Shown: positions 36,130 to 50,649 of the stretch, piece by piece
Numbering within the stretch: position 1 is the stretch's first letter
Layout: each line of letters begins with the position of its first letter
DNA from: a bacterium
Lineage (GTDB): Bacteria > Actinomycetota > Acidimicrobiia > Spongiisociales > Spongiisociaceae
Assembly: GCA_028821235.1 (NCBI GenBank)
Contig: JAPPGV010000161.1
Span: 291-64,290 of the forward strand
Length of the DNA: 64,000 nt
Direction of reading: 5' to 3'
Notes under the pieces: generated by a model
Told to the model about the DNA's origin: nothing
The model's input: only the letters and a program-made list of their open reading frames with translations
Databases searched by the model: none
Position numbers and translations under genes: made by a program

Positions 36130-36147
36130 GGCGCCGGCTAGGCGCCC
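36129..36147. terminator. GC hairpin between convergent dnaE and aroQ-fusion genes
   Basis: gggcgcc (36129-36135) / loop ggcta / ggcgccc (36141-36147), a perfect 7-bp stem. It touches the dnaE stop (36127-36129) and contains the minus-strand stop (36138-36140). No U-tract. Confidence 0.35.
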
Positions 36148-37280
36148 AGGCAGGCGTGCGCCACCTCCTCCCATCCGGCGGCGAGGGGCGAGATCACGTC
36201 CATGTGGTCGGCCTCCAGTACCTCGACCAGGTGGGATCGGTCGCCGGCCGCCAAGGCCGCCTTGACGAAGCGGCGGCTCTGCTCCGGCGCTACCGACCGG
36301 TCCATGAGGCCGTGCACCGCCACCGTCGGGACACCGGAGGGAAGGGCACGGATGGGGTCGACCGCCGGGAGGCGAGCGTGGCGGTCGTCGCCCAGGAAGG
36401 CCGAGATGAGCCCGTCGAAACCGGAACCGACGTTCTCCAGGTCGAGCATTCCCGCCAGCGTGACGAAGCCGGCCGGACGCACGGAGGCGGTCTTGGCGGC
36501 GAAGAATCCCAGTTGGGCGCCGGCGGAGTGCCCGATCACCGTCACCCGGTCCAGGTCGAGGCGATGGTCGCCGGAGATGGAGGACAGGGCGCCGACCGCG
36601 GCGGTAACGTCCGCCATGGAGTCCCGCCAACCGCCCACCGGTGGGATCCGCCGGTACTCGATATTCCAGGTGGCCGTTCCCCTCGCGGCCAGGTCGACCG
36701 CGGCCCCGTCCATCAGGTCACGGGTGTAGGGGTCCGCCCATCCGCCACCGTGGACCAGGATCGCCACCGGGTGGGGTCCGGGAGCATCGGGAAGCCGCAG
36801 ATCGGCCACCTGGTCGGGGTGCGGCCCGTAGGCCAGGATGAGAGGGGGATGGGCCGCCCGGTAGTGGAGATGGGAAATGGCGTCCAGGTAGCCGGTGACG
36901 CCCCGGCCGAAGATCTGGTACGCGCAGGCCGGCTCGGTCACGGAGATGCGCCGCCATGGCTCGCGTTCCCGAACATTGGAGATATGGATCTCTACGGTGG
37001 GGATCCCGACCGCCTCTATGGCGTCGTGGAGGGCATAGCTGGTGTGGGAGAAGGCGCCGGGGTTGAAAACGATCCCGTCAGCGGTCTCCCGCGCGGCGTG
37101 AATGGCGTCGATCAACTCTCCCTCGTGATTGGACTGGAAGTCCTCGAGGCGATGACCGAGCCGGGCCGCGTGCGCGTGGCACTGCTCGGCCACGTCTTCG
37201 AGCGTGTCCGAGCCGTAGACCTCCGGGGCGCGCGTGCCCAGGAGGTTGAGGTTGGGGCCGTTCAGCAAGAGGATTCGCAT
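36138..37280 (-). CDS. aroQ: fusion protein: type II 3-dehydroquinate dehydratase (N-terminal) + alpha/beta hydrolase (C-terminal)
   Basis: Residues 1-145 are MRILLLNGPNLNLLGTR...EIHISNVREREPWRR (DHQase II). Residues about 150-380 carry HGGGW (oxyanion), GHSAG (nucleophile elbow), and later Asp and His (HGLMDRS, EADHMD). Confidence 0.8.
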   Translation of the reverse strand: MRILLLNGPNLNLLGTRAPEVYGSDTLEDVAEQCHAHAARLGHRLEDFQSNHEGELIDAIHAARETADGIVFNPGAFSHTSYALHDAIEAVGIPTVEIHISNVREREPWRRISVTEPACAYQIFGRGVTGYLDAISHLHYRAAHPPLILAYGPHPDQVADLRLPDAPGPHPVAILVHGGGWADPYTRDLMDGAAVDLAARGTATWNIEYRRIPPVGGWRDSMADVTAAVGALSSISGDHRLDLDRVTVIGHSAGAQLGFFAAKTASVRPAGFVTLAGMLDLENVGSGFDGLISAFLGDDRHARLPAVDPIRALPSGVPTVAVHGLMDRSVAPEQSRRFVKAALAAGDRSHLVEVLEADHMDVISPLAAGWEEVAHACLGA

Positions 37281-37421
37281 GGTTACCAGAGCGTAGGCGG
37301 GTCTGGGCGCCAGTTGGGATGATTAGTCCCCCGACGCCGCGGGGCGGGTGATCACCACACCACCCGGCCGACCGGGAGCGGTACGGCCCGGCCGGTACAC
37401 TCGGGCCGGGAAGGCGATGCG

Positions 37422-38489
37422 GTGAGAGACGGCAACATAGGCTTCGGCCTGGTCGGGACCGGTATGTCGGGTGGCTTCATGGCCAAGGAGCTCGACTTCG
37501 TCGACGGCGCCGAGCTGGTGGCGGTGTGCAGCCGGAACGAGTCCAACGTCCGGGGATTCGCCGAGGCCCACGACGCCAGGCACTGGTTCACCGATTACCG
37601 GCGGTTGGTGGAACACGATGATGTCGATGTGGTGGTCGTCTCGGTTCCCACCGGTCTGCACGCCGAGGTGGCGATCGCCGCCTCGAACTCCGGCAAGCAT
37701 GCCTTGGTGGAGAAGCCCCTTGACACCACGCTGGAGAGGGCTGATCGGATGATCGCCGTCTGCCGGGCGAACAACACCAAGCTCGGGGTGGTCTTCCAGA
37801 TGCGTTTCGGTGTGGTGGCCCGCACCCTCAAGGAGGCGGTCGACTCGGGTCGTCTGGGGCGGGTGTTCCTGAGCGACGCGGTTGACAAGTCGAGCCGGAC
37901 GGCTGCCTATTACGACTCTGCCGCCTGGCGGGGAACCGAGGCGCTCGAGGGCGGGGGCTGTCTGATGACCCAGTCCATCCACATAATCGACCTCCTGCAG
38001 CATCTGATGGGACCGGTGCGGTCTGTGATGGGCCGGGTGGCTACCCAGTTCCACGACATCGAGGTGGAGGACACCGCTACCGCGGTGGTCAGTTTCACCA
38101 ACGGCGCTATGGGGATCATCGAGAGCACTTCCTCGGTCCGGACCGCTCTCAAGTCCCGGATCGAGCTGCACGGCGAGCTGGGCACCGTGGTCGCCAACGC
38201 CCAGTACGACAGGTTCCTTGTCTGGGATGTAGAGGGTGACGAGGATCGGGTGGAGGTGGACCCGGACTTCGGGTTGACCGACATCGACGATCCCTGGGCC
38301 TACCCGCAGACCCGCCACCGGATCCAGCTCCAGGACATGGTCGACGCCATCCGAGAGGATCGTGATCCGGTGCTCACCGGTGAGGACGCCCGGGTGTCTC
38401 TGGCCATAATCGCGGCCATCTACGAGTCCTCCCGGCTGGGGAGGGAGGTCTTCCTCGATGCCTACCGGCCGGGGAACCCCGTCCCCTGA
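37422..38489 (+). CDS. Gfo/Idh/MocA-family NAD(P)-dependent oxidoreductase
   Basis: N-terminal Rossmann IGFGLVGTGMSGGF, EKP motif in VEKPLD; 355 aa. The last 46 codons lie inside the left direct repeat. Confidence 0.85.
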   Translation: MRDGNIGFGLVGTGMSGGFMAKELDFVDGAELVAVCSRNESNVRGFAEAHDARHWFTDYRRLVEHDDVDVVVVSVPTGLHAEVAIAASNSGKHALVEKPLDTTLERADRMIAVCRANNTKLGVVFQMRFGVVARTLKEAVDSGRLGRVFLSDAVDKSSRTAAYYDSAAWRGTEALEGGGCLMTQSIHIIDLLQHLMGPVRSVMGRVATQFHDIEVEDTATAVVSFTNGAMGIIESTSSVRTALKSRIELHGELGTVVANAQYDRFLVWDVEGDEDRVEVDPDFGLTDIDDPWAYPQTRHRIQLQDMVDAIREDRDPVLTGEDARVSLAIIAAIYESSRLGREVFLDAYRPGNPVP

Positions 38490-38492
38490 GTC
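38347..38492. repeat. left copy of 146-bp direct repeat (authentic 3' end of the oxidoreductase gene)
   Basis: Hand alignment to 40298-40443 gives 144/146 identical. Mismatches at 38354 (a vs c) and 38480 (c vs t). Confidence 0.9.
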
Positions 38493-40235
38493 TCAGACGG
38501 GGCCGTAATCGAGGACCGACGACCGTCCTGCGATGGCCACGACCCGCACGAGCAACGACTTGCCGTCCGCGTCCATCAAGTGCAGATCTTCATCTCCGGG
38601 GACGAAAGGGACCGGCTGCTGCTGTCCGCCGTTGATGGCGATGTTGGAGGCATAGAGGTACGTCCGGTAGCTGGCGTCGAGAATCGGATTGAGCCGGCCG
38701 GCTAGACCCGGTACGTGACCGGTCGACTCTGCGAACACGACGGAACCGCCATCCGCATTGGGGGTCAACTCGACTGCGAGCGCTCGCTCCATCGGCAACC
38801 AGCCTCGTTCGACATGTGCCGCGTAGCCCTTTCGAGCCACGAACACCGTCATTGGCAGGTGAACGGAGTGCAGGTCAAGGCGCGCCTCGCCCTCAGCGTC
38901 AGTGCGGTCCCGCTTCCAGGTGTTGTTCGGGAACAGTGCCAGCACATCCGCGCCGGCGAGCGGTGATCCGCCGCTACGCACCGTGACCACCACAGTGGCC
39001 GGGTCCGCGTGAACCTCGGCGGCGGGGAGAGTAATGCACAACTCCGAATTATCGATGAGCCGGAACTGTGCGTCCTTCCCGGATAACTCGCTGGTCTCGC
39101 GGCTGATGATAGAAACACCGTCGCCACGGCGCTCCATGAAGTGTTGCCGGCCTCCGGTACCCTCGACCCCACCGACGCTCATGCGGCCCAGGATTGAGGC
39201 GAGTACCTGGTTACGAGTCACCTGTCGCTCCATCATGCTCTCGACGGTCAGATTGTTGGGAAGTCCGCCCGGAGATCTCAACTCAAGGCGATCAGAAAAG
39301 ACCGACAACCGGATTCTGCTGCCTCGGATCGAGTAGTCACGGTGCACGACCGCATTCACCAGAGCCTCAAAGACCGCTCGCGAGCTGTATTGGGGCAGGT
39401 TCACCCGAGCGGGGTCCTTGCGCGCACCGACACGCATGTTTCGCATGACGAACGCGAGTGCCTGGGTGATCTGCTTATTGATCGGACCGACGATGTCCTG
39501 TGCGTCGATCTGCGCAGATGAGCGGTCAACGCCCTTGTAGCGAACGGCCGTGACCTCCGCGCCCGGAACGAACTCTCGGGGCTGCCGGGTGCACGCCAGA
39601 ATGCCCGCCACGGTGGCCAGAACCGCGCCGTGGCTGTCGGTACGCAATAGTCCGAGCTTCTCGAGCCCCAACCGGGGGTCGCGCAAGCCCTCAGCGCTGA
39701 GCAAGGGCTTCCACAGGTCCTTGTCGAGGGTTGAGAAGCCCGTGCCAGCGACCATCTGCTCGTCGAAACCGGTGAACCGAGCCTGGCCGCGCCTTTGCGC
39801 CAGGCGCATCCGCTCGTCGGGCGACATGGGCTGCTTGGCACTGCCCACGCGCACGAAGCTGCCCCCAGGGCTGTCGTATTGCGCGTCCCCTTCCGGTATG
39901 GAGACAAGGAGGAACGGCCGTTCATCCAGCTCCCTTCGGAACGTCTCGATCCTGACCGGTGGCTTGATGGAGTCCGTGCAGATCTCCCTGACCAGGCCCT
40001 CGAGTTTGTCCAGTTGGTAGCGGGACATTCCTGGCACATCGCCCGCGTCGGTGACGCCGAGCAGAAGGACGCCGCCCCTGGCATTCGCGAAAGCGGCGAT
40101 CTCGTCGGCCCAACTGTCGCGATGGTGCCGCGCGGGGTCGCTGGCGCGAAAATCAACATCTTTGAATTCCCAAGCGCTGTCCTCGCCGAGGCGAAGTTGG
40201 CGCCGAATCTCGTAGTCGGTGTACGCCATCGTCAT
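38493..40235 (-). CDS. AlbA_2 (Schlafen-like divergent AAA) / HATPase_c_4 domain protein with atypical beta-rich C-terminus
   Basis: N-terminus GEDSAWEFKDV...FANARGGVLLLGV (AlbA_2-like). Middle VFEALVNAVVHRDYSIRGSRIRLSVFSDRLELRSPGGLP (HATPase_c_4-like). The C-terminal roughly 170 aa are unassigned, and the first part looks like a carboxypeptidase-regulatory-like domain. Confidence 0.7.
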   Translation of the reverse strand: MTMAYTDYEIRRQLRLGEDSAWEFKDVDFRASDPARHHRDSWADEIAAFANARGGVLLLGVTDAGDVPGMSRYQLDKLEGLVREICTDSIKPPVRIETFRRELDERPFLLVSIPEGDAQYDSPGGSFVRVGSAKQPMSPDERMRLAQRRGQARFTGFDEQMVAGTGFSTLDKDLWKPLLSAEGLRDPRLGLEKLGLLRTDSHGAVLATVAGILACTRQPREFVPGAEVTAVRYKGVDRSSAQIDAQDIVGPINKQITQALAFVMRNMRVGARKDPARVNLPQYSSRAVFEALVNAVVHRDYSIRGSRIRLSVFSDRLELRSPGGLPNNLTVESMMERQVTRNQVLASILGRMSVGGVEGTGGRQHFMERRGDGVSIISRETSELSGKDAQFRLIDNSELCITLPAAEVHADPATVVVTVRSGGSPLAGADVLALFPNNTWKRDRTDAEGEARLDLHSVHLPMTVFVARKGYAAHVERGWLPMERALAVELTPNADGGSVVFAESTGHVPGLAGRLNPILDASYRTYLYASNIAINGGQQQPVPFVPGDEDLHLMDADGKSLLVRVVAIAGRSSVLDYGPV

Positions 40236-40297
40236 CGTGCCCTCGCGAGCGGCCCTGTCGGTATCTCTATGCTACCCATGGACTCCTCCGGCAACCT

Positions 40298-40440
40298 CCA
40301 TCCGCGAGGATCGTGATCCGGTGCTCACCGGTGAGGACGCCCGGGTGTCTCTGGCCATAATCGCGGCCATCTACGAGTCCTCCCGGCTGGGGAGGGAGGT
40401 CTTCCTCGATGCCTACCGGCCGGGGAACCCTGTCCCCTGA
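40298..40440 (+). pseudogene. orphan duplicate of the last 46 codons plus stop of the Gfo/Idh/MocA gene (right direct repeat, which extends to 40443)
   Basis: The translation ends ...REDRDPVLTGEDARVSLAIIAAIYESSRLGREVFLDAYRPGNPVP, identical to the C-terminus of the 37422-38489 product. The upstream context is unrelated. Confidence 0.85.
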
Positions 40441-40454
40441 GTCCGGGTGGGTCG

Positions 40455-42653
40455 CTAGTAGTCGTCGCGCCGGCGGGGTGCGTTGATCTCGCTTCCGAGG
40501 TGGAAGGTCACGCGCCGGAGCTCACCCTGGAACGGGAATGGCGCTTCGTAGCGAGTGCTGATGGGACCGTACTCGTCACGGCCCACGTCCATACCGGCCA
40601 GGGAGATCCAGATCAGTACGCGGTCGAAGTCGAACCACTCGCCTTGGTGGTCACCGGCGGTCAGACGACCCCGGCCGGCCCTCTCGCCGACAAGGTCGAA
40701 GTCGAACCCTAACGTCAGGGGGTCGCCGTCCGGCACGGAGATGCTGTGGGCTATGACCGGCCCCGCCGCGTTGTACTCGTAGTGGAGGCGCCCGTCCTTC
40801 ATGTACAGCACGAAGCCGGATGTCGGGTGGCCGTAGGCGACGATCACACCCTCCATCTCACCGGAAGCGACAGCCTCGATCTGGTAGGAACAATGCTCGA
40901 TCGGGGGTGTGGCGGCCCGCTCGACGTGGCTGAGGGGTGGGTAGTAGTCGACCCGCCGCCGGTAGAGCGGAGAGCGCTCGTCCATGCTGTAGGACCAGAA
41001 CAGCTCCATGTAGCGGTCGTCCAGCGGCAGCACATCGTTCGCCTCCGCCTCGTGCCAGAACAGGCGGTCCAGTTCAGCCAGCCTCTCGGGCTCGGAGGCG
41101 GCGAGGTCATTGGACTCGGAGAAGTCCTCGTCAAGGTGGTAGAGCTCCCACTCCTCCGTCGCATAGGGATCGCCGGGCGTGTGGCGAGTGACCGCCTTCC
41201 ATCCGTCCGCCCAGATCCCCCGGTGACCGGTCATCTCGAAGTACTGCGGGCCCTTGCGGCTTGGCACGGTCGGATCACCGAACGTGTAGGCCATGCTCTT
41301 GCCGTGGATCGGCAACTGGGAACGCCCCAGGTACTCGGCGGGCGGCTCCACTCCCGCCACCTCGTAGATGGTGGGTGCGATGTCGATCATGTGGTGGAAC
41401 TGATCAAGCACGGCGCCGGGGGAGGCCATACGGTCCCCCCACCGGACTATCAACGGAACCCTGATGCCTCCGCCGTGGGTGTAGCGCTTGTACCACTTGA
41501 GAGGCGTGTTGGAGGCTTGTGCCCAGCCCCTTGCGTACTGCGAGTCGGCGGTGGGACCTCCGATCTCGTCGATCCGATCGATGATGTCCGCTGCCCCGGG
41601 CTCGATGTCGTTGAAGAAGTGGATGCGCCCGAAGGCCCCGATGTCCCGGCCGTCCATGGCCGCCCCGTTGTCGGAGCACACGAAGATGAGCGTGTTGTCC
41701 CAGCGGCCCACCCGCTTCAGGTGGTCGAACAGGCGTCCGAGCGCTGCGTCGGTGTGCTCGATGAAGGCGGCGTAGGCCTCCTGGAGGCGCGCCGACACCA
41801 GACGCTCCTCCGCGGTGAGGCTCGCCCACGGGCGAACATCGGGATTGCTCGGGGGCAGCTCGGTACCGGGCGGGATGATGCCTGCTTCCAACTGCCGCTC
41901 GTACCTGTCCTCACGGATCCGGTCCCAGCCGGCGTCGAATCGCCCGCGGACCCTCTCCATGTACTCGGGGGGCGCATGGTGCGGTGCGTGGGCAGCGCCG
42001 AGAGGAAGGTAGAGAAACAACGGGTCCCAAGGGCGGTGGGCGATATGGTCGGAGACGAACCGTGAGGAACGGTCTATCAGGTCATCGGTCAGGTGGTATC
42101 CGTCCTCCGGCCTGGCCGGAGGCTCGATGTGGTGGTTGTCGCGCACCAGTTCGGGGTAGTAGTGGTCGGCCGCGCCCCCCAGAAACCCGTAGAAACCGTT
42201 GAAACCCCGGGCCAGCGGCCAGTCGCCGTAGGGCCCTGCCGGTCCCTGGCTGTCGGCCGGGAGCAGGTGCCACTTCCCGGCCGCAAATGTGTTCCACCCG
42301 GACTCGCGCAGCACCTCGGAGACGAGTGCCGCCCTCCTGGTGACCCGCTCCTGGCCGCTGGGGTAGTCGTAACGGGTCCCGGTGAGCATCCGCATGCCCA
42401 CCGCATGGTGGTTTCGGCCGCTCAGCAGGCAGGCTCGCGACGGCGAGCACAGCGTGGTGGCGTGGAAGTTGTTGTAGCGGTGGCCGCCCGCGGCCAGTGC
42501 GTCGAGGTTGGGCGTGGCGATCTCGGATCCGTAGCACCCCAGGTCCGAGAAGCCGATGTCGTCGAACATGATGAGCAGCACGTCCGGCCTGCGGCCGTTA
42601 CCTTCGGTCGCACCGCCCGTGCGCGGCTTCCGTTCTGTTCCACCGCCGTCCAT
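40455..42653 (-). CDS. arylsulfatase-family sulfatase (Cys-type)
   Basis: LIMFDDIGFSDLGCYG and the formylglycine motif CSPSRACLLSGRNHH. 732 aa. No N-terminal signal peptide evident. Confidence 0.9.
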   Translation of the reverse strand: MDGGGTERKPRTGGATEGNGRRPDVLLIMFDDIGFSDLGCYGSEIATPNLDALAAGGHRYNNFHATTLCSPSRACLLSGRNHHAVGMRMLTGTRYDYPSGQERVTRRAALVSEVLRESGWNTFAAGKWHLLPADSQGPAGPYGDWPLARGFNGFYGFLGGAADHYYPELVRDNHHIEPPARPEDGYHLTDDLIDRSSRFVSDHIAHRPWDPLFLYLPLGAAHAPHHAPPEYMERVRGRFDAGWDRIREDRYERQLEAGIIPPGTELPPSNPDVRPWASLTAEERLVSARLQEAYAAFIEHTDAALGRLFDHLKRVGRWDNTLIFVCSDNGAAMDGRDIGAFGRIHFFNDIEPGAADIIDRIDEIGGPTADSQYARGWAQASNTPLKWYKRYTHGGGIRVPLIVRWGDRMASPGAVLDQFHHMIDIAPTIYEVAGVEPPAEYLGRSQLPIHGKSMAYTFGDPTVPSRKGPQYFEMTGHRGIWADGWKAVTRHTPGDPYATEEWELYHLDEDFSESNDLAASEPERLAELDRLFWHEAEANDVLPLDDRYMELFWSYSMDERSPLYRRRVDYYPPLSHVERAATPPIEHCSYQIEAVASGEMEGVIVAYGHPTSGFVLYMKDGRLHYEYNAAGPVIAHSISVPDGDPLTLGFDFDLVGERAGRGRLTAGDHQGEWFDFDRVLIWISLAGMDVGRDEYGPISTRYEAPFPFQGELRRVTFHLGSEINAPRRRDDY

Positions 42654-42777
42654 TACTCGGCGAGCCTACTCCGCCGCCCGCGCATGGCGCACGCTCAGCT
42701 CAGGGCTCGCGGACTCAAGACCTCCTCCCTCGGTGGGCAATCCCGAGCCGAGAGGTCGTCATCTGGTCGCCGCCCCT

Positions 42778-42806
42778 TTGACACCCATGACAGGTGTATC
42801 TACGGT
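42778..42806 (+). promoter_or_regulatory. candidate promoter for the ABC importer genes
   Basis: TTGACA (42778-42783) - 17 nt - TACGGT (42801-42806), about 80 nt upstream of the binding-protein start. The spacer contains CACCCATG. Confidence 0.25.
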
Positions 42807-42884
42807 CCTTGGGGACAGGCTCAGGGGGTCTGGATCCCCGCTCAGGCTTGCACCCATGTGCAATCACTTCGGAGGGAGGATCTG

Positions 42885-44303
42885 ATGATTGCCCGAAACC
42901 GGAAACACCTTTCCGTTCTACTACTTTTCACAGTCTTGGCGCTAGTAGCGGCCGCGTGCGGGTCCGACGAAGACAGCACACCGGCTACGGCCGCCGCGAC
43001 CCAAGCGACAACCACCACGGCAGCCATGGCGGAGGAAGCTCCGACCACCACCGAAGCGATGGAAGAGGCTCCCGCCACCACCGAGGCGATGGAAGAGGAA
43101 GCTCCGACCACCACCGAGGCGATGGAAGAAGAGATGATGGGAACCATGGCTGACGTTCCCATGTACGACACTTGGGATGACGTACTCGCTGCTGCCGACG
43201 GCACCACGGTCAACTGGCACATGTGGGGCGGCAACGAAAACCTCAACTCCTGGGTCGACACGTATATCGGCGATGTCGTGAAGGAGCGCTACAACGTCAC
43301 GCTCAACCGGGTCCCGCTCGGCGACACCGTCGAAGCCGTCAACCTGGTCCTCAACGAGCACCAGGCCGGGGTGACCGAAGGCGGCAGCGTCGACATGATC
43401 TGGATCAACGGTGACAACTTCAAGACCCTGAAGGAAGCTGAGCTCCTGTTCGGACCGTGGTCGGAGGGGATCCCCAACGCGGCGCATGTCAACTGGGACG
43501 ACCCTTCGATCGCCTACGACTTCGGCGTCTCGGTCGATGGCCTCGAATCGCCGTGGGGATCGGCGCAGATGGTCTTCGTGTACAACTCGGCCTACGTGCC
43601 GGAACCGCCCAGGACCTTCGAGGCACTGGCGGAGTGGGTTCACGCCAACCCGGGCCTGTTCACCTACATGGCCCCGCCGGACTTCCACGGCCTGAGCTTT
43701 GTGAAGCACATGTTCTACTGGGCGGCCGACGACTACTCGGTGTTCCAGCAACCCTTCGACCAGGCGGTGTTCGACAGCATCGCGCCGAAGGTGTGGGAGT
43801 ACCTGAACGACATCGAGCCCGACTTGTGGCGCGGCGGCGACACCTATCCGACCAGTATCGGGGCCCTGCAGGACCTGCTGGCTAACAGCGAGGTCTACTT
43901 CGGCATGTCGCTAAACCCGCGGCGGCCGTCAACCCTGATCAACAACGGCACGTATCCGGACACCATCCGCACCTGGGTGATGGACACGGGGACGCTCACC
44001 AACAAGAACTACGTGACGATCCCGAAGAACGCCTCAAACCCGGCGGGCGCGATGATCGTCGCCAACCACATACTCAGCACCGAGAACCAGCTGATCCAGG
44101 CCAACCCGGAGCAGTGGGGATGGGGGCTCCCGACAGACACCACGACCTGGACACAGGAAGAGCGTGACATCCTCAACTCGTACGACCGGGGAGTGGCAAC
44201 CCTTCCCTTCGACGTCCTAGCCGCGGCCGGATTGCCCGAGCCGCACGCCTCCTGGCCAACGCAGATGGAGGCGGGCTGGATCGAGAACGTCCTCGAGGCC
44301 TAG
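42885..44303 (+). CDS. ABC transporter substrate-binding lipoprotein
   Basis: Start at ATG 42885, after the ggagggagga SD. Lipobox LVAAAC|GS. Repetitive Thr/Glu-rich linker followed by a solute-binding fold. Confidence 0.8.
   Translation: MIARNRKHLSVLLLFTVLALVAAACGSDEDSTPATAAATQATTTTAAMAEEAPTTTEAMEEAPATTEAMEEEAPTTTEAMEEEMMGTMADVPMYDTWDDVLAAADGTTVNWHMWGGNENLNSWVDTYIGDVVKERYNVTLNRVPLGDTVEAVNLVLNEHQAGVTEGGSVDMIWINGDNFKTLKEAELLFGPWSEGIPNAAHVNWDDPSIAYDFGVSVDGLESPWGSAQMVFVYNSAYVPEPPRTFEALAEWVHANPGLFTYMAPPDFHGLSFVKHMFYWAADDYSVFQQPFDQAVFDSIAPKVWEYLNDIEPDLWRGGDTYPTSIGALQDLLANSEVYFGMSLNPRRPSTLINNGTYPDTIRTWVMDTGTLTNKNYVTIPKNASNPAGAMIVANHILSTENQLIQANPEQWGWGLPTDTTTWTQEERDILNSYDRGVATLPFDVLAAAGLPEPHASWPTQMEAGWIENVLEA
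43026..43133 (+). repeat. in-frame tandem repeat (about 3.3 copies of 30-33 nt) encoding AMEE(E)AP(T/A)TTE
   Basis: atggcggaggaagctccgaccaccaccgaagcg / atggaagaggctcccgccaccaccgaggcg / atggaagaggaagctccgaccaccaccgaggcg / atggaagaagag. Confidence 0.8.
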
Positions 44304-44310
44304 TCAAGAG

Positions 44311-45273
44311 GTGAGCAGCACGGTGGGGCCGGCGCCCGCTCAGGCAACCGGCCCCACGCCACCTCCGTCGGGGACCGAGCTCGGTCCCATGACGCTTGAA
44401 CGACGCCAGACGCCCCTGAGGGAGCGGCTGAAGATCCCGCTGATGCTGACGCCGGCGATGGCGGTGATCCTCCTGCTGTTCCTCGGGGGGCTGGTCGCGG
44501 GTCTCATGCAGAGCCTCGGCTACTTCCCGGCCGCCGGCCTCACCGAGTTCACCTTCCGCCACTACGTGGACGCGGTCACCGACCGGAACTTCCTCGTCTC
44601 GCTGTGGACCACGTTCCGCATCGCCTTCTCGGTCACGCTGCTGTCGACCGTCTTCGCCGTCGGCGCGGCTCTCGTCCTTAGGCAGCGCTTCCCGGGTAGC
44701 CGTCTGGCGACGTTCCTATTCCAGATTCCTCTCCCCGTACCCCACCTGGTGGCCGCCAGCGCCGTCATCCTGCTGTTCGCCCAGAGTGGTCTCCTGTCTC
44801 GCATAGGAGCTGCACTGGGACTGATCAACGCTCCGGGCGACTTCCCGGCGATCCTGTACGACAACGCCAGCATCGGAGTGATGCTGTCGTTCATGTGGAA
44901 GGAGATACCGTTCGTAGGCCTGGTGGTGCTCGCCATCCTCCAGAGCGTCGGTCCCCAGTACGAGGAGTTGGCCCAGACCCTGGGAGCTACCAAGCGGCAA
45001 CGGCTCGTACACGTCTTGCTGCCTCTCATCATGCCCGGGGTGGTCTCCACGTGGATCATCGTGTTCGCCTTCACGTTCGCGAACTTCGAGATCCCGCTCC
45101 TGCTCGGACAGAGCTTCCCGACCACCCTTCCGGTTCAAGCCTTCCGGGAGTTTCAGCGTCCCGAACTGACATCGCGGCCCAAGGGGATGGCCATTGCCAT
45201 CGTGTTGGCCGTCATCACGGTCCTCCTGCTGATCGCATACAGGCGGCTGGCCCGCTACTCGAGGTCGACGTGA
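44311..45273 (+). CDS. ABC transporter permease
   Basis: Six TM helices and the EAA-type loop ELAQTLGATKRQRLVHVLLPLIMPG. Start uncertain (44311 or 44389). Confidence 0.85.
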   Translation: MSSTVGPAPAQATGPTPPPSGTELGPMTLERRQTPLRERLKIPLMLTPAMAVILLLFLGGLVAGLMQSLGYFPAAGLTEFTFRHYVDAVTDRNFLVSLWTTFRIAFSVTLLSTVFAVGAALVLRQRFPGSRLATFLFQIPLPVPHLVAASAVILLFAQSGLLSRIGAALGLINAPGDFPAILYDNASIGVMLSFMWKEIPFVGLVVLAILQSVGPQYEELAQTLGATKRQRLVHVLLPLIMPGVVSTWIIVFAFTFANFEIPLLLGQSFPTTLPVQAFREFQRPELTSRPKGMAIAIVLAVITVLLLIAYRRLARYSRST

Positions 45274-45292
45274 AACGGGCGGTGGGGATCCG

Positions 45293-46174
45293 ATGACCTC
45301 GCCAGATGCTCCCGGGCCTGCCCCGGGTCCGGACCAGGCAGTGAGCGAACGACGGATGCCCGGGCGGCGGCAGATCAACTGGTTGCGTTGGGCCACCGTA
45401 ACCGTCATCGTGGTGTCGGTGGTGCTGCCGGGTGTGTCGCTGCTGCTGAGGTCCTTCGCCTTCCGCTGGCACTATCCCGACGTTGTTCCCGGTGAGTGGG
45501 GCTTGGACGCCTGGACCTACACCATCGACGACACGTCACGTGTGTTCGAATCGCTCGGAAACAGCCTACGCATCGCGCTGCTGACCACCACTCTGGCGCT
45601 CCTGGTCGGTATGCCCGCAGCCCGAGCCCTGGGCCAGCACCAGTTCCGCGGCAAGCGGGTAGTGGAGTGGATCCTGATGATGCCGATCATCGTGCCTGCG
45701 CTGGTAGCCGCCATGGGGATCCACATCGTGTTCATCAGGCTGGGCCTCACCGCGACCGTCCTGGGCGTGTCGCTGGTCCACTTGATACCGGCCACACCGT
45801 ATTTCGTCCTGGTGATGTCCAGCGTGTTCGCCAACTACAGCCCGGCCCTGGAGGAGACGGCCCGGACCCTCGGCGCCAACAAGATACGGGTGTTCCGGTA
45901 CGTCACCCTGCCCGCCATCTCGTCGGGACTGCTCGTGGCCTGCCTCTTCACGTTCCTGATCTCGTGGTCGCAGTACGTGACCACGGTTCTGATCGGCAGC
46001 GGAATTCTGATCACCCTGCCGATGGTGCTCTTCCCGTTCCTCGGGCAGGGCAATGCCGCGGTGGCGGCCTCGATTACATTGATCTTCGTCGCACCCGCGG
46101 TCATGGTGTTGATCCTGACCTCTAGGTCGTTGGGGCGCGGCTCGACCGTGATGGGAGGTTTCGGCAAGGTATGA
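45293..46174 (+). CDS. ABC transporter permease
   Basis: TM helices and the EAA-type loop ETARTLGANKIRVFRYVTLPAISSG. Confidence 0.85.
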   Translation: MTSPDAPGPAPGPDQAVSERRMPGRRQINWLRWATVTVIVVSVVLPGVSLLLRSFAFRWHYPDVVPGEWGLDAWTYTIDDTSRVFESLGNSLRIALLTTTLALLVGMPAARALGQHQFRGKRVVEWILMMPIIVPALVAAMGIHIVFIRLGLTATVLGVSLVHLIPATPYFVLVMSSVFANYSPALEETARTLGANKIRVFRYVTLPAISSGLLVACLFTFLISWSQYVTTVLIGSGILITLPMVLFPFLGQGNAAVAASITLIFVAPAVMVLILTSRSLGRGSTVMGGFGKV

Positions 46175-47235
46175 CGGATGTGTCTCTCGTCCATCTCGGA
46201 CGGGCCTTCGGTGACAAGTGGGCGGTCAAGGACCTGAACCTGGAAATCGCCTCGGGGGAGATGGTTGCCCTGCTCGGTCCTTCCGGGTGTGGCAAGACCA
46301 CCACCCTGCGAATGATCACCGGGCTGGCCCGCCCTACCACGGGGGATGTGCTGTTCGACGGGTCATCGGTGGTGGAGGTCCCAACCGAACGGCGAGGTGC
46401 GGTGCTCATCTTCCAGCAGCATCTCCTGTTCCCCACCATGACCGTGGCCCAGAACGTCGGCTTCGGCCTCAAGATGGCCGGCATGGGCAAGGACGAGATC
46501 AACCGGAGGGTGGAGGAAATGCTGGAACGGGTCGAGTTGTCCGGCTTCGGCACCCGCAAGGCGCACCAACTGTCCGGAGGCCAGCAGCAGCGGGTGGCGC
46601 TGGCCAGAGGCCTGGTCACCCATCCCAAGGTCCTGTTGCTCGACGAGCCGCTCGCCAACCTCGACGCGAACCTGCGCATCACCATGCGCCACCTGATCCG
46701 CTCGATCCAACGAGATCTCGGGATCACCGCCATCTTCGTTACCCACGACCAGGAGGAGGCGGTCATGCTCGCCGACCGGATCGCCCTGATGTTCGACGGG
46801 ACCCTGCAGCAGGTCGGCAGGCCGGACGAGTTCTATCGCCATCCCCGCACGGCCGGCATCGCCAGCTTCTTCCGCAGCCAGAACTTCCTGCCTGGGACTC
46901 GCCACGGCGACGTGGTCAGCACAGGCGCGGGCGACCTCGCAGTGGGCCACAACGTGGCCGCCACCGGCGATGGGCCGGTCGTCGTCACGGCGCGGCCGGA
47001 GACCCTGGAGCTGTCGAACCGGCCGGGCGGGGAGAACAACCTTCCGGCGACGGTGACCTCGGCGATATACATGGGTACCCATACCCAGGTCTTCGTGCAG
47101 CTGGCGGACACCACATGGACGGTCCACGCCCCGCCGTCCGTCACTCTCAACACGGGCGACCAGGTGTTCGTCGAGTTGCCCAAGGAGCACATCTGGATAC
47201 TCGAAGATGACTCGGCAGCCCAGGACGGCCGGTAG
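46171..47235 (+). CDS. ABC transporter ATP-binding protein (importer type with C-terminal regulatory domain)
   Basis: Walker A GPSGCGKTT, signature LSGGQQQRVALARG, Walker B LLLDEP. Confidence 0.9.
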   Translation: MTDVSLVHLGRAFGDKWAVKDLNLEIASGEMVALLGPSGCGKTTTLRMITGLARPTTGDVLFDGSSVVEVPTERRGAVLIFQQHLLFPTMTVAQNVGFGLKMAGMGKDEINRRVEEMLERVELSGFGTRKAHQLSGGQQQRVALARGLVTHPKVLLLDEPLANLDANLRITMRHLIRSIQRDLGITAIFVTHDQEEAVMLADRIALMFDGTLQQVGRPDEFYRHPRTAGIASFFRSQNFLPGTRHGDVVSTGAGDLAVGHNVAATGDGPVVVTARPETLELSNRPGGENNLPATVTSAIYMGTHTQVFVQLADTTWTVHAPPSVTLNTGDQVFVELPKEHIWILEDDSAAQDGR

Positions 47236-47274
47236 GAGCCCCCCGACCCCGGCGAGGCTTGATTGGAGCAGGTG

Positions 47275-49533
47275 ATGGGCGGTCCTCAGAGAGTCGGAAA
47301 GACGAGAGAAGAGTCCGAGGTTCGCTGGCCGCAATCCTCGCCCGTTGCCGACGGCCGGACCAACGTGGTGGTGATCCTCCTGGACGACGTCGGCTTCGGA
47401 CAGATCGGGTGCTACGGGTCGTCGATCCGCACACCCAACATTGACGCGCTGGCGGCCGACGGGATCCGCTACTCGGCTTTCCACACCACCGCCCTGTGCT
47501 CACCGACGCGGGCGGCGTTGCTGACCGGGCGGAACCATCACAGCTGCGGCATGGCCAGCATCCCGCAGCTGGCCTTGGGGTATCCCGGCCACAACGCGGT
47601 GATGCCCCCCACGCACGGGATGCTCTCGGAGATCCTGCGGGATCGCGGATACAACACCTTCGCGGTTGGCAAGTGGCACCTGACGCCTGACTACGAGCAG
47701 ACGGCGGCCGGCCCGTTCGACCGCTGGCCCCTCGGGCGGGGATTCGAGCGTTTCTACGGGTTCCTGATGGGGATGATCGACCACTGGCACCCGGGCGCCC
47801 TCGCCCAGGACAACCAGTTCGTCGACCGTCCCGGCGGAAACGGCTACCACCTGAGCGTCGACCTGACCGACCGGGCGATCGACTACTTGGCGGGCGCCCA
47901 CTCGGCCAACCCCGCCAAGCCGTTCTTCCTGTACCTGGCCTACGGGGCGGGCCACTCTCCCCACCACGTACCGCTGGAGTACGCCGACGCCTACCGGGGT
48001 GTCTTCGACGACGGCTGGGACCTGGAACGGCAGCGGGTGCTGGACCGCCAGAAGGAGCTGGGGCTGATGGCGGAATCGGTGGAGCTCCCGGAGCGAAACT
48101 GGGGAGTGGCGGCCTGGGATACGCTGTCGGACGACCACAAACGACTGTACACCCGGATGCAGGAGGTCTACGCCGGTTTCGTCACGCACACCGATGAGCA
48201 GATCGGGCGGGTGGTGGAGTTCCTGCGCCGCATCGGCCGGCTTGACGACACGATGATCGTGTTCCTGTCCGACAACGGCGCCAGCCTCGAGGGCCAGGAG
48301 CACGGGATCATCAACGAGTACGCCATGTACAACGCCTTGTCCCCGGAGTTCCCCGAGCTCCTGGAGCACATCGACCGGATCGGCGGGCCCGGTTACATGA
48401 ATCACTACCCCCGGGGCTGGTCGATGGCCGGCAACACACCCTTCCGGGAGTGGAAACGGTCCGTATGGCAGGGTGGGATCGCCGATCCCCTCATCGTCCG
48501 GTGGCCGGACCGGATCCGGACCGCCGGTGAGATCCGGCGCCAGTACCACCACGTAACCGACGTGATGCCCACCATCCTCGAGGCACTCGACATCGAGCCT
48601 CCGTCAAGTATCGATGGCGTACCCCAATCCGAGATCGAGGGCGTGAGCATGTGGTACAGCGTCCTGGAGCCCGACGCCCGGTCCCGCAAGCGGGTGCAGT
48701 ACTACGAGATGCTGGGACATCGCGCCATCTATTACGACGGCTGGAAGGCGGTGGCCGATCATCCTCCCATGAGCAGCCGGGGCGACTTCGACCAGGACCG
48801 CTGGTTCCTCTACGACATGGAGGCCGACCCCAACGAGACCAATGATCTGTCCGCTGAGCATCCTGACATGGTCCAGGATCTGGTTGACCGCTGGTGGGTG
48901 GAGGCCGGCCGGTACAACGTTCTCCCCATCGACGACCGCGGTCACGAGCGCTGGCCCGATCCCCGACCCTCAGTCGGCCCCGACCGGGACACATTCGAGT
49001 ACCTGCCCAACACCCAACCAGTCTTCGCGCGGGGAGCGGTCAACACCCTCAACCGGGACTTTGACATCGTCACCACGGTTTCTCCCTGCCCCTCCGGAGT
49101 GACCGAGGGCGTCATCTTCGCCCACGGCAACCGATTCGGCGGCTATACCCTCTTCGTCAAGGACGGAGAGGCGCGTTTCGTCTACAACCTGTGCGGCATT
49201 CGGGAATACCGGGTGACCGCCCCCCTGCCGGAGGGCGATGGCCCGGTGAGGGTGTCGGTCATCTACAGGAGAGAAGCGGACCATCGAGGCAACGTGCGGT
49301 TGATCGTCGGGGAGGCCGAACCCGTCAAGGGACGCATCGGCATGACCATCCCCTGGGTCTTCCCCGCCCACGGCAGTCTCAACTGCGGCTTGGACAGAGG
49401 CCTGTCGGTCTGCCCGGACTACGTAGCCCCGTTCGCCTTCACCGGGCGGATAGACGGAGTCTCCGTCACCGTCGGGGAACAGGGCAGCCTGGACAAAGCC
49501 AAGATCCTCGAAGCCGCACTCGCCGAACAGTAG
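47275..49533 (+). CDS. arylsulfatase-family sulfatase (Cys-type), paralog of 40455-42653
   Basis: ILLDDVGFGQIGCYG and CSPTRAALLTGRNHH. Start taken at ATG 47275 after ggagcagg (the track start 47263 is also possible). No signal peptide evident. Confidence 0.9.
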   Translation: MGGPQRVGKTREESEVRWPQSSPVADGRTNVVVILLDDVGFGQIGCYGSSIRTPNIDALAADGIRYSAFHTTALCSPTRAALLTGRNHHSCGMASIPQLALGYPGHNAVMPPTHGMLSEILRDRGYNTFAVGKWHLTPDYEQTAAGPFDRWPLGRGFERFYGFLMGMIDHWHPGALAQDNQFVDRPGGNGYHLSVDLTDRAIDYLAGAHSANPAKPFFLYLAYGAGHSPHHVPLEYADAYRGVFDDGWDLERQRVLDRQKELGLMAESVELPERNWGVAAWDTLSDDHKRLYTRMQEVYAGFVTHTDEQIGRVVEFLRRIGRLDDTMIVFLSDNGASLEGQEHGIINEYAMYNALSPEFPELLEHIDRIGGPGYMNHYPRGWSMAGNTPFREWKRSVWQGGIADPLIVRWPDRIRTAGEIRRQYHHVTDVMPTILEALDIEPPSSIDGVPQSEIEGVSMWYSVLEPDARSRKRVQYYEMLGHRAIYYDGWKAVADHPPMSSRGDFDQDRWFLYDMEADPNETNDLSAEHPDMVQDLVDRWWVEAGRYNVLPIDDRGHERWPDPRPSVGPDRDTFEYLPNTQPVFARGAVNTLNRDFDIVTTVSPCPSGVTEGVIFAHGNRFGGYTLFVKDGEARFVYNLCGIREYRVTAPLPEGDGPVRVSVIYRREADHRGNVRLIVGEAEPVKGRIGMTIPWVFPAHGSLNCGLDRGLSVCPDYVAPFAFTGRIDGVSVTVGEQGSLDKAKILEAALAEQ

Positions 49534-49657
49534 TGATGGGACCCGGTGCGGTCCGACCGAGAGCCGCGACCGGAGCGATGCCCTCGCTGGCTATTCGAGT
49601 GACGACACCTCGAAGGCGGCGCTGAGCCGACCCGGTTCTCGGCCCTGATGGACTTGA

Positions 49658-49732
49658 GGTCCTGTGGCGCAGTTCGGTCCGCGCGCCTGCTTTGGGAGCA
49701 GGAGGCCGCCGGTTCGAATCCGGCTAGCCCGA
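49658..49732 (+). tRNA. tRNA-Pro(UGG)-like element with a defective acceptor stem (possible pseudo-tRNA or attachment-site remnant)
   Basis: D arm gcgc/agttcggtcc/gcgc. Anticodon arm cctgc/ttTGGga/gcagg. Variable loop aggcc. T arm gccgg/ttcgaat/ccggc. 3' acceptor strand tagcccg plus discriminator A. The 5' strand ggtcctg pairs at only 4 of 7 positions (it would need cgggcta). Confidence 0.6.
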
Positions 49733-49741
49733 CCCTGCCGA

Positions 49742-49763
49742 TATAGTACAATCGAGTAGTACA
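49742..49763 (+). promoter_or_regulatory. candidate promoter/operator of the toxin-antitoxin operon
   Basis: TATAGT -10-like hexamer (49742-49747). Direct repeats TAGTACA at 49744-49750 and 49757-49763. SD agggagg lies 7 nt before the GTG at 49784. Confidence 0.3.
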
Positions 49764-49783
49764 GATCAGCAGGGAGGCGTCCC

Positions 49784-50071
49784 GTGTCAACCGCCGCCAA
49801 GTCCTCAGCGGTGCCCGATTCGATCCCATTCTCGGAGTTTCGGGCGAACTGCTCTCGCATCTTGGACCAAGTAGAGGAAACCGGCAACCCCATCACCGTC
49901 ACAAAGAACGGACGTCCGGTGGCCTCGATAACGCCCTGCCCGAAGCAGCCTACGAGCTTTTGGGACCGGCTTGGTGAGATCGTCAAAGTAGAGCCGGGCG
50001 CAGATATCGACAACATAGGCGAAGCAGAATGGGGTGCCGATTGGTGCCCCACCCATGAGGTGACCGGCTGA
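49784..50071 (+). CDS. Phd/YefM-type antitoxin
   Basis: 95 aa. IPFSEFRANCSRILDQVEETGNPITVTKNGRPVASITP is typical of the Phd/YefM N-terminal fold. The stop overlaps the toxin start (tgatg). Confidence 0.75.
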   Translation: MSTAAKSSAVPDSIPFSEFRANCSRILDQVEETGNPITVTKNGRPVASITPCPKQPTSFWDRLGEIVKVEPGADIDNIGEAEWGADWCPTHEVTG

Positions 50072-50484
50072 TGCCGGGCCTGCTGCTGGACACCAACGTT
50101 GTCCTGCGATCGGACCAGCATCGTAAGCACGAGGTGAGCCGGGCAGCAACAAAGCTGATTGACGCCGCCGCCGCTAATGGAGAGGCAGCCCTCAGTTCCA
50201 TAACCTTCTTGGAAGTCGCCACGCTCGCAGAGAAAGGCAGAATCAGCGTTGACGCCGAAGAGTTGTACCGGTATGTCATTCAGAACGGAATCCGGGTGAT
50301 CCCGCTGGACGCACGTATGGCCATGCGCGCCGGGCAATTGTCAGGAGAGGGATATGCAGGCCGCGACCCCGCCGACCGCATGATCGTCGCCACAGCGATA
50401 CTCGCCGGATGCGACCTCATCACGATGGACCGGGAAATGATTGCCTGGAACGGCCCCTTGCGGGTCATCGACGCCCGCGCCTGA
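50071..50484 (+). CDS. vapC: PIN-domain ribonuclease toxin VapC
   Basis: 137 aa with conserved acidic positions in LLLDTNVV, FLEVATLAE, DPADRMIVATA, ITMD. Confidence 0.8.
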   Translation: MPGLLLDTNVVLRSDQHRKHEVSRAATKLIDAAAANGEAALSSITFLEVATLAEKGRISVDAEELYRYVIQNGIRVIPLDARMAMRAGQLSGEGYAGRDPADRMIVATAILAGCDLITMDREMIAWNGPLRVIDARA

Positions 50485-50649
50485 CCCCGCCGGCTCTCGG
50501 TAATCAGGCTATACGCGTCTGAGTTCCACAGCGGATGTGAGGGGGGAAGTGAGCGGCTCAGCACGTTAGATCGGCGTCGCTCTTAAGATCGACGTGTACA
50601 GCAGGAGGTCCCGATCTTTCACGACTTCGGTGGGGGATGGTGGTCGTAC

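Follow-up and report, generated by a model that had tools for sequence, protein, structure and literature searches.

A 146-nucleotide direct repeat around an SLFN/AlbA_2-HATPase gene in a sponge-associated acidimicrobial scaffold: a probable scar of illegitimate recombination between two accessory segments

Gene content of the locus and the direct repeat

The stretch of DNA analysed here, referred to below as the window, is 64 kb in length and forms part of scaffold_686 of the ENA metagenome ROBB21-1_SAMN13943213; all positions are those of the whole window, and L-numbers denote the other loci and assemblies with which it was compared. The window contains an accessory gene for a protein of 580 aa, which is enclosed between two copies of a direct repeat that reproduces the 3' end of a neighbouring gene for an oxidoreductase of the Gfo/Idh/MocA family (Gfo). 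The two copies (38347-38492 and 40298-40443) are 146 nt long and, as established by a repeat search and by reading of the sequence, they are identical at 144 of the 146 positions, the two mismatches being A/C at 38354/40305 and C/T at 38483/40434. A 51-nt core of the repeat has exactly two matches in the window, where none is expected on the basis of 100 shuffles, and this pair constitutes the only long repeat within the 64 kb. As argued below, the repeat is, on balance, probably a scar left by homology-facilitated (i.e. homology-assisted) illegitimate recombination (HFIR), or by circularization of a fragment followed by a single crossover, through which two accessory segments would have been merged at one site.

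The Gfo gene (37422-38489, plus strand) is an intact open reading frame (ORF) of 355 aa with matches to the Pfam families GFO_IDH_MocA, GFO_IDH_MocA_C and GFO_IDH_MocA_C3, and its orthologues in L004, L100, L104 and L009 share the same context of genes for DnaE and dehydroquinase (DHQase). The left copy of the repeat (plus strand) consists of the last 143 nt of this gene, inclusive of the stop codon and in frame, followed by GTC. In this form, which is designated allele A, it is common to the window and L002, and relatives have Gfo ends that depart from it at 14-20 of the 146 positions. The stop codon of the 580-aa gene (38493-40235, minus strand), which was recognised as an ORF with the Pfam domains SLFN_AlbA_2 and HATPase_c_4, abuts the left copy, and the 1805 bp between the two repeats hold this single minus-strand ORF together with its 62-nt upstream region (40236-40297, minus strand), whose extent is known from alignments with related units. 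The right copy (plus strand) is an orphan Gfo 3' end, which occupies the native position of such an end adjoining a sulfatase gene, 11 nt from the stop codon of that convergent gene (40455-42653, minus strand). The orphan copy is followed by a native spacer of 8 nt from the region 3' of Gfo (40444-40451, plus strand), as is seen from the alignment with L004, in which the Gfo end and its downstream spacer (L004 8932-9088) align with the right copy and onward to window position 40451. An annotated 39-aa ORF at 40321-40440 (L001 12900-13019) amounts to nothing more than the C-terminal end of the orphan Gfo, starting in frame at a GTG codon, and it is likely a non-functional remnant.

The G+C content of the 1805-bp unit is 0.637 in comparison to 0.674 for the window, which places it at the 3.5th percentile of 1805-bp windows, and the G+C content at third codon positions is 0.77 for the 580-aa gene against 0.86-0.91 in neighbouring genes; the lower G+C content is thus real but modest. 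No recombinase or transposase domain was found by Pfam among the genes called between ~27.4 and 50.2 kb of the window, inclusive of the unit, and the repeat search found no terminal inverted repeats at the ends of the unit. A sequence-only reading of the window had described the 146-nt repeats with their 144 identical positions, the left copy as the in-frame Gfo end plus 3 nt, the right copy as an orphan followed by the sulfatase gene, the single minus-strand gene in 1805 bp, a lower G+C content, and the lack of a recombinase, transposase or terminal inverted repeats. This description has held up in all of these respects, with the assignment of the two copies resting on ORFs and Pfam matches and with the compositional difference being a modest one.

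Arrangements of the locus in related lineages and the divergence mosaic

The same two junctions are present in L002, a second short-read assembly obtained from another sample, and in L009, a long-read assembly. As three independent metagenome assemblies inclusive of the window share both junctions, and one of these is based on long reads, an assembly artefact is ruled out. The empty site is represented by L100 and L101, where the DnaE, DHQase and Gfo genes are followed by the convergent sulfatase gene and the rest of a variable island (40452-50530 in the window, ~10 kb, delimited by its presence or absence across the relatives), with the repeated segment present in a single copy. In blastn alignments, L100 5965-7059 corresponds to window 37387-38480 and L100 6926-9197 to window 40298-42587, with the homology to the right copy beginning exactly at 40298. 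Since a single stretch of L100 (6926-7059) matches both copies, the repeat is a true duplication of target sequence, and the proposal that the window shows an insertion with duplication relative to an empty site is in agreement with these results.

Around the core genes (DnaE, DHQase, Gfo ... ABC, nuo) four kinds of haplotypes are seen. In haplotype (a), found in L004-L007, Gfo is followed after 41 bp by the ABC-nuo genes, and both the SLFN gene and the island are absent. In haplotype (b), seen in L100 and L101, Gfo is followed by the sulfatase island with no SLFN gene. In haplotype (c), seen in L104, L108 and L109, Gfo or a remnant of it is followed by the SLFN gene and, after ~140-170 bp, by ABC-nuo, and there is no second repeat. 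Haplotype (d), viz. Gfo, SLFN, orphan Gfo end, island and ABC-nuo, is that of the window, L002 and L009. The empty and the alternatively filled sites that the sequence-only reading had envisaged are therefore both found (L100/L101 and L104, L108, L109, respectively). The island of 40452-50530 is absent in L004, L104 and L109, and in these the core homology resumes at window 50531-50567. A scan of JGI metagenomes with the sulfatase recovered only the more distant L090/L091, in which the DNA beyond the sulfatase stop codon is unrelated.

The members of haplotype (c) differ in detail. In L104 there is continuous homology of 2.9 kb from Gfo through the unit up to window 40304, followed by ~140 bp and the ABC gene; Gfo has other sequence in place of its last 18 nt and runs into the 11-nt tail of the unit. 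In L108 (6520-6655), the SLFN stop codon is followed by 54 bp of unknown origin and then by a 78-bp internal Gfo fragment (corresponding to window 38027-38104), which is joined directly to the 3' end of the second sulfatase of the island (window 49541). In L109 (3183-4982), the SLFN gene is split into ORFs of 156 aa and 438 aa and is probably a pseudogene; here, Gfo is wholly deleted and the unit abuts the region upstream of a 529-aa gene.

In a neighbour-joining tree based on the coding sequence of the unit, the window, L002 and L009 group with L104 and L108, apart from the units found in other contexts, and these five share particular states in the 5' region, e.g. TAGCAT and GGCACGATG. The unit of the window is 88.2% identical at the nucleotide level to that of L104, where the core genes are 87-93% identical, and the L109 unit, located at the same spot, shows 90.5% identity to the window. 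This clade of haplotype (c) units and their core-like divergence suggest that the gene is an older resident at the locus, which would predate the split of the lineages. The sequence-only reading regarded the gene as a newcomer bounded by the repeats; this interpretation finds no support in L104, L108 and L109, which carry the closest units but lack the second repeat. The 580-aa gene is instead probably the older component at this site, and what appears to be new in the window in comparison to the SLFN-bearing relatives is the block of 40298-50530, consisting of the orphan Gfo end, the spacer and the island. Hence, the orphan repeat most likely arrived together with the sulfatase island.

The three genomes with haplotype (d) show a mosaic of divergence. 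In relation to the window, DnaE and DHQase of L009 are 91.2% and 90.0% identical, respectively (the L002 contig does not cover them); the body of Gfo is 99.7% identical in L002 and 94.3% in L009; the left repeat 100% and 88.8%; the unit 98.9% and 98.6%; the right repeat 88.8% (87.7% over 146 nt) and 90.2% (89.0% over 146 nt); and the first sulfatase 96.0% in both. Thus, the three genomes are 98.6-99% identical to one another in the unit, whereas the identity is only 86-90% in the adjoining repeats and ~90% in the core. The shift in divergence occurs within ~10 nt of the left edge of the unit and within 20-50 nt on its right, and inside the unit the variable sites are evenly spread. The left and right copies differ from each other at 2 positions in the window, at 20 in L002 and at 14 in L009, and the right copy differs from that of the window at 18 of 146 positions in L002 and at 16 of 146 in L009. 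Within codons, the orphan copy of L002 differs from that of the window at 16 positions, of which 11 are third positions according to a hand count, and this preponderance of third-position changes suggests that the orphan copy was derived from working Gfo alleles.

If strains carrying the unit recombine with strains that lack it, then the flank would be replaced only up to the edge of the heterology, as a tract spanning the unit would delete it. With the replacement stopping at the unit, the flanks would come to sample the population and the unit would remain young among the unit-bearing genomes, so that the mosaic may be explained by flank replacement from donors without the unit. The mosaic also rules out two other possibilities. 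A carried attP (an attachment site brought in with the unit) is rejected because the repeat is missing from the units in foreign contexts and because both copies vary among the window, L002 and L009; independent site-specific insertions, each with a fresh duplication, are incompatible with the 20 and 14 differences between the copies in L002 and L009. These results also bear on the possibility that the arrangement stems from an old tandem or segmental duplication, purely local to one lineage, or from faulty assembly, with no horizontal input. Although the repeats lie close together and the unit encodes no mobility function, the junctions are shared by three independent assemblies, there are both empty and alternatively filled sites, the lineages have 98.6% identity in the unit against ~90% in their core genes, and homologous units occur in unrelated contexts and phyla; we consider such an origin to be hardly credible.

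The joint in microhomology and the proposed merging of two accessory segments

The homology of the window to L104, L108 and L109 ends at 40302-40304, and that to units in foreign contexts at 40298-40304. At this point the related units read ...GGCAACCTCCAT(T/C)CGG... (L104), and the gene strand of L109 reads CCGGATGG (in a longer stretch, CCGGATGGAGGTTGCC); the Gfo gene at codon 309 reads GCCATCCG(A/C)G (in a longer stretch, GACGCCATCCG(A/C)GAGG). Both the upstream end of the unit and Gfo codon 309 have the sequence CCATCCG, which places the joint in a microhomology of 7 nt (40298-40304, plus strand), identified by comparing the window with the related units and with Gfo. The overlap at the left junction is at most 2-3 nt (GTC/TC).

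Based on these observations, the joint can be accounted for by the merging of two parental haplotypes of related sponge Acidimicrobiia, each with its own accessory segment at one variable position behind Gfo. One parent would have carried Gfo, the convergent SLFN/AlbA_2-HATPase gene and ABC-nuo, in the manner of L104, L108 and L109, and the other would have had the sulfatase island immediately behind Gfo, an arrangement seen in L100 and L101. On one side the two would have been connected by ordinary homologous recombination, in ABC-nuo or in Gfo/DnaE, and on the other side by an illegitimate joint at CCATCCG, linking the upstream end of the SLFN unit to Gfo codon 309. Linear HFIR is one possible route to this outcome. 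Alternatively, a fragment extending from Gfo codon 309 through the SLFN unit could have been closed into a circle at CCATCCG, and the circle could then have entered the island-bearing chromosome by a single crossover through the 146-bp homology. Each of the two routes needs one illegitimate joint, both would yield the observed structure equally well, and either haplotype may have been the recipient. Because the joint lies 146 nt before the end of Gfo, there are two Gfo ends, one on the working gene and one left as an orphan by the island. Subsequent homologous recombination would have spread the arrangement between species-level lineages, with the flanks being exchanged as far as the insert itself. 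Direct observation covers the duplication and the empty site, the other arrangements of the locus, the microhomology, the trimmed ends of the unit (described below) and the divergence mosaic; the direction of transfer, the choice between a linear and a circular route and the route of DNA uptake are what we infer from them. Several features of an HFIR footprint are thus present, viz. a junction in microhomology, haplotypes of both parental types in relatives, and a duplication in comparison to the empty site, and we hold the merging of two accessory segments by such a process to be the probable origin of the scar, with considerable reserve.

This reserve is due to three observations, which weigh against the merger. 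First, the left junction of the window is unlike that of L104: in the window, a complete Gfo end and GTC are followed by a unit with no tail, whereas in L104 the Gfo gene lacks 18 nt and is followed by an 11-nt tail. If the two descend from a common ancestor, then in the merger model this ancestor had both the complete Gfo end and the tail, and two later small deletions are required, or else an unobserved parental haplotype; L108 and L109 show that this junction is prone to deletion, and no haplotype with the window type of Gfo/unit junction but without the island was found among the relatives compared. Second, the two copies in the window differ at only 2 positions, as is the case in a fresh target duplication, so that the merger needs either parents with nearly the same Gfo end or later gene conversion. 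Third, the identity of 88% between the units of the window and L104 is no higher than that seen with unrelated contexts (87-89%), and the vertical descent of the unit at this locus therefore depends on the tree topology and on the shared 5' states.

The same observations are relevant to the possibility that a trimmed linear fragment with only the SLFN gene and its putative promoter was inserted de novo, by illegitimate recombination at both ends, into a chromosome similar to that of L100, with a target duplication of 146 nt. Such an event could have proceeded through a staggered break with fill-in of 146-nt overhangs or through template switching, in the manner of non-homologous or microhomology-mediated end joining or of microhomology-mediated break-induced replication. 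Both unit junctions of the window are novel in comparison to all related units, as the tail and the distal upstream sequence are missing; microhomology is present at both of them (2-3 nt and 7 nt); the 1.4% difference between the copies fits the divergence of 1.0-1.4% of the unit among the three strains; an empty site exists; and bracketing repeats are enriched at the loci of the gene family (9/74 versus 1/139, see below). However, a two-ended insertion requires the coincidence that the fragment landed, in the same orientation, within 18 nt of the position taken by its nearest related units in L104, L108 and L109. Further, the copies differ at 20 positions in L002 and at 14 in L009, and most loci of the family are without a bracketing repeat. 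We therefore regard this alternative as unlikely, although it is the main competitor of the merger. Both the two-ended insertion and the merger are forms of illegitimate recombination that need no dedicated machinery. The proposal in the sequence-only reading of a site-specific or Campbell-type integration is accordingly upheld in one part, as a Campbell-type single crossover through the 146 bp is one of the two routes favoured here, and its site-specific part is not sustained, because no shared attachment (att) sequence is found.

The merger by one homologous anchor and one illegitimate joint has known counterparts. In PMC5361080, HFIR is outlined in these terms and is described for Acinetobacter, Streptococcus pneumoniae and Pseudomonas stutzeri, with reference to de Vries & Wackernagel 2002, Prudhomme et al. 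2002 and Meier & Wackernagel 2003. In a conjugation assay that was built for HFIR in E. coli, 56 of 60 clones were positive in a PCR diagnostic for a duplication, and in the 14 that were sequenced the homologous end was duplicated over 109-950 bp; according to the authors, the incoming fragment had circularized and then integrated by a single crossover (PMC3240628). The locus described here resembles these cases in having one homologous side and one joint in microhomology, in the lack of a dedicated recombinase at the locus, and in the trapping of foreign DNA beside a conserved anchor gene, and its 146-bp repeat matches the 109-950 bp duplications of the E. coli assay (PMC3240628). Unlike in the assays, the event is deduced from natural metagenome haplotypes, and two accessory segments have been merged with no marker being trapped. 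A further likeness exists to the displacement of C-termini or modules seen in Rhs, contact-dependent inhibition and type VI secretion effector-immunity systems (PMC5361080 and works cited there), where the upstream anchor is conserved and an old 3' end is left orphaned along with its partner; an orphan 3' end architecture of this type is also present at hsdM/hsdS in L046 and L063. However, the anchor in the window is an oxidoreductase gene of the housekeeping type and no polymorphic toxin gene, and there is a single orphan with no matching immunity function. Lastly, as in integrative elements that use gene 3' ends and in cis-mobilisable elements (CIMEs), a host gene has its 3' end repeated and yet remains intact; the differences from these are the lack of an integrase among the genes called between ~27.4 and 50.2 kb, the lack of att sites in the relatives of the unit, the trimmed ends lying in microhomology, and the length of 1.8 kb.

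The above results point to the scar being a new example of a known process rather than a new mobile element, and a long-standing question is not opened by it. It provides a natural example, from uncultivated sponge-associated Acidimicrobiia, of accessory genes becoming stacked at a hot spot without the machinery of mobile elements, for which one microhomology joint and homologous recombination suffice, and which leaves behind a long direct repeat resembling an att site. In the annotation of genomic islands it would thus be incorrect to interpret direct repeats of a gene 3' end, by themselves, as proof of the action of an integrase.

Related units in other contexts and the family of the 580-aa gene

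Units of 1.8 kb related to that of the window are found in at least seven other contexts, in addition to the same Gfo/ABC-nuo locus in L104, L108 and L109, and the view of the sequence-only reading that the enclosed gene is accessory and prone to transfer, and might be encountered elsewhere, is confirmed by this. The closest foreign units (L010-L015, L018, L020 and L021) are 83-88% identical to that of the window at the nucleotide level, and their similarity to the window is confined to the interval from 38489/38492 to 40277-40304, with unrelated flanks; neither a Gfo-like sequence nor any other shared att sequence was found at their ends. When units from at least seven contexts are compared in pairs, their homology extends to ~65-85 nt upstream of the ATG codon and to 1-15 nt past the stop codon. 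The unit of the window is trimmed at both ends in comparison to these, as it lacks ~16-20 nt of conserved upstream sequence (of which 62 nt are present in the window and ~70-85 nt are shared by relatives) and the tail of ~12 nt. The upstream region carries the hexamer TAGCAT (40274-40269) and the sequence TTGCCG (40294-40289), and the hexamer, in the form TAGC(A/G)T, stands 33 nt before the ATG codon. A scan for the sigma-70 consensus flagged nothing at the conserved upstream region; we take this region to be a putative promoter, and the unit is read as the smallest piece that still carries the putative promoter and the ORF.

The boundaries of these units are relevant to the possibility, raised in the sequence-only reading, that a site-specific recombinase acting in trans from elsewhere mobilised a CIME-like or integron-like cassette, with the repeats as attL and attR. 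The rather sharp boundaries in at least seven contexts, the apparent tRNA gene that the L018 unit abuts, the 36-nt duplication of the upstream boundary motif in L015 and the bracketing repeats at several other loci are all in accordance with it. However, sharp ends are also expected if only fragments with promoter and ORF survive repeated transfers. Further, the repeats are derived from the target and are specific to each locus (Gfo, hsdM and others), with no shared core, terminal inverted repeat or attC-like structure; the unit ends of the window are trimmed in comparison to the consensus ends; neither copy is constant in L002 and L009, contrary to what is expected of a carried attP; and L104, L108 and L109 have the unit at the same locus with other junctions and no second repeat. 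Neither a sequence recurring at both unit ends nor a shared terminal repeat or att-like core emerged when 81 loci were scanned. No attC-like structure was seen, with no formal attC model having been run, and as the unit ends only 0-3 nt past the stop codon in the window and ~12 nt past it in relatives, it is too short there to be an integron gene cassette with attC; it also has a conserved upstream region of its own, unlike the promoterless ORF of such a cassette. A CIME-like element, which would need att sequences in the foreign units, is thus not supported by units that lack them, nor by the trimming of the window unit at both ends and the location of one junction in a 7-nt microhomology, and we consider a site-specific cassette moved in trans to be very improbable.

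Among the candidates for a boundary motif, GGTTGCC was rejected as a terminal direct repeat or core, since it is present at both ends only in L012. A 16-nt boundary motif has two occurrences only in L015, and a 13-nt version of it with mismatches has 9 matches in the window, where 2.6 are expected, scattered in coding DNA.

Bracketing direct repeats (at least 54 nt in length, E < 1e-14) are present at 9 of the 74 testable loci of the family, in comparison to one strong case in 139 shifted controls (Fisher p = 4e-4). They are found only at a minority of loci, and both their sequences and their lengths differ, the duplication being 146 nt in the window and ~54-140 nt at the other loci. An insertion sequence (IS) or transposon finds no support as the source of the window arrangement, because the unit ends have no inverted repeats, there is no transposase domain, and the duplication length is not fixed. 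Several of the bracketing repeats were not accepted as parallels: those of L045 and L051 are IS-related (rve_3), and those of L016, L028, L070 and L082 involve non-coding or paralogous sequences and were not counted. In L046 and L063, a complete hsdM gene is followed by a spacer and the SLFN gene, an orphan hsdM 3' end with a ribosome-binding site, and hsdS, and the repeats are 87-89% identical. The repeat of L076 is the end of a small nucleotidyltransferase-like ORF (with weak Pfam support), and this locus probably shares the architecture of the window, viz. an intact gene, the SLFN gene, an orphan 3' end and the native downstream gene. True parallels of this architecture are therefore limited to L046, L063 and probably L076.

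The order of intact gene, SLFN gene and orphan 3' end at other loci is predicted by anchor-assisted capture. However, its recurrence also leaves some weight to a mechanism of the cassette type, in which a minimal single-gene cassette (promoter and SLFN gene) would spread through the genomes of sponge symbionts and be inserted next to gene 3' ends, with long target duplications of variable length (~50-150 nt), by an undescribed mechanism acting in trans or by its own protein. The agreement of unit boundaries within ~10-20 nt in at least seven contexts, the enrichment of bracketing repeats (9/74 versus 1/139), the architecture shared by at least three loci (the window, L046/L063 and L076) and the duplicated boundary motif in L015 would fit such a mechanism. 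The restriction of the repeats to a minority of loci and their differing sequences and lengths argue against it, so that the new cassette mechanism proposed in the sequence-only reading is quite doubtful, and we continue to favour the merging of two segments through an anchor gene.

Both Pfam domains of the 580-aa protein exceed the gathering score: SLFN_AlbA_2 (PF04326) matches residues 18-138 with 67.0 bits (cut-off 25.3) and HATPase_c_4 (PF13749) matches residues 305-403 with 66.4 bits (cut-off 26), and the C-terminal ~170 aa are conserved without a Pfam match. The family comprises 3880 database proteins at E <= 1e-20 and 388 related loci in the genomes of GTDB species from many phyla, of which the best 80 were compared in detail. 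Nearly all of these 80 are from metagenome-assembled genomes (MAGs), several named as sponge symbionts (Poribacteria, Candidatus Poriferisodalis), and their taxa include Acidimicrobiia (Ca. Aldehydirespirator, Ca. Poriferisodalis), Chloroflexota, Poribacteria, Acidobacteriota, Latescibacterota, Thermodesulfobacteriota and Flavobacteriales. The protein identity of 59-90% in the best-matching segment across the best 80 loci, which are from MAGs of at least seven phyla (L010-L089), implies extensive transfer of the family across phyla.

In many phyla, a gene of this type is located directly after the type I hsdM gene and before hsdS, and in Poribacteria and others its start lies within ~30 nt of the end of hsdM. 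The protein of the window thus shares both its two-domain architecture (AlbA_2/Schlafen-like and HATPase_c_4) and its hsdM-hsdS relatives with accessory genes of type I restriction-modification (R-M) systems; unlike such embedded genes, the gene in the window's clade is solitary, has its own upstream region and adjoins no R-M gene. In PADLOC there were only weak partial matches (E 1e-10 to 1e-14) to the pAgo and Aga (pAgo-associated) models, with no full-length defence match and no defence partner genes in the window, and the NCBIfam search with the protein gave no match. A sequence search of PDB retrieved 3lmm (uncharacterised, 583 aa), 2kyy (a RecG-related domain) and Schlafen cores, and NCBIfam, PADLOC and PDB together assigned no function. 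Nothing that concerned this gene specifically emerged from literature searches on COG2865 and long target duplications. From its genomic contexts, the gene is probably defence-related, and the 580-aa SLFN/AlbA_2-HATPase protein is a reasonable candidate for a defence function.

Some other observations were made on individual loci of the family. In L015 (4040-4160) there is a 36-nt direct repeat, GAAGACGTA(A/G)GCCC(C/G)ACCGAATCGAGGTTGCCG, which represents a doubling of the upstream unit boundary; its two copies are separated by ~72 nt, and the first copy continues with GATCAG..., similar to the unit tails of L012 and L020. L010 and L011 are two contigs of the MAG CBDBEL01, each with a unit, and they are identical for at least 130 nt upstream and at least 100 nt downstream, so that they could represent a duplicated region or a multi-copy element. 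In L018/L105, the DNA ~40 nt past the stop codon of the unit resembles, on the opposite strand, the 3' portion of a tRNA gene (GGGATTTGAACCC...), and L105 has a cytosine methylase gene and a gene with an MTaX1 domain 4-6 kb upstream.

The remaining features of the window lie on the two sides of Gfo. A gene of 528-548 aa is present between DHQase and Gfo in L004 (6227-7813), L009 (5036-6682), L102, L104 (13249-14838) and L109, and it has no match in Pfam, PADLOC or NCBIfam; in its place, the window has only 29 bp (37301-37329) and L100 an ORF of 83 aa, and a second gene is thus variably present on the opposite flank of Gfo. The type II dehydroquinase itself (36138-37280) is fused, in one ORF of 380 aa, to a C-terminal alpha/beta-hydrolase (BD-FAE/Peptidase_S9-like), and this fusion is kept in all relatives examined. 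The island of 40452-50530 contains, besides its first sulfatase, genes for a solute-binding protein, two permeases and an ABC ATPase, a second sulfatase (47263-49533, plus strand), a tRNA-Pro gene (49658-49731), which lies inside the island and away from its edge, and a PhdYeFM/PIN toxin-antitoxin pair. A tandem repeat of 30-33 nt in four copies (42979-43129) lies in the 5' portion of the gene for the solute-binding protein and encodes a repeated TTEAMEE(E)AP-like linker, and within this tandem repeat L002 and the window differ by a 3-nt indel (43125-43127).

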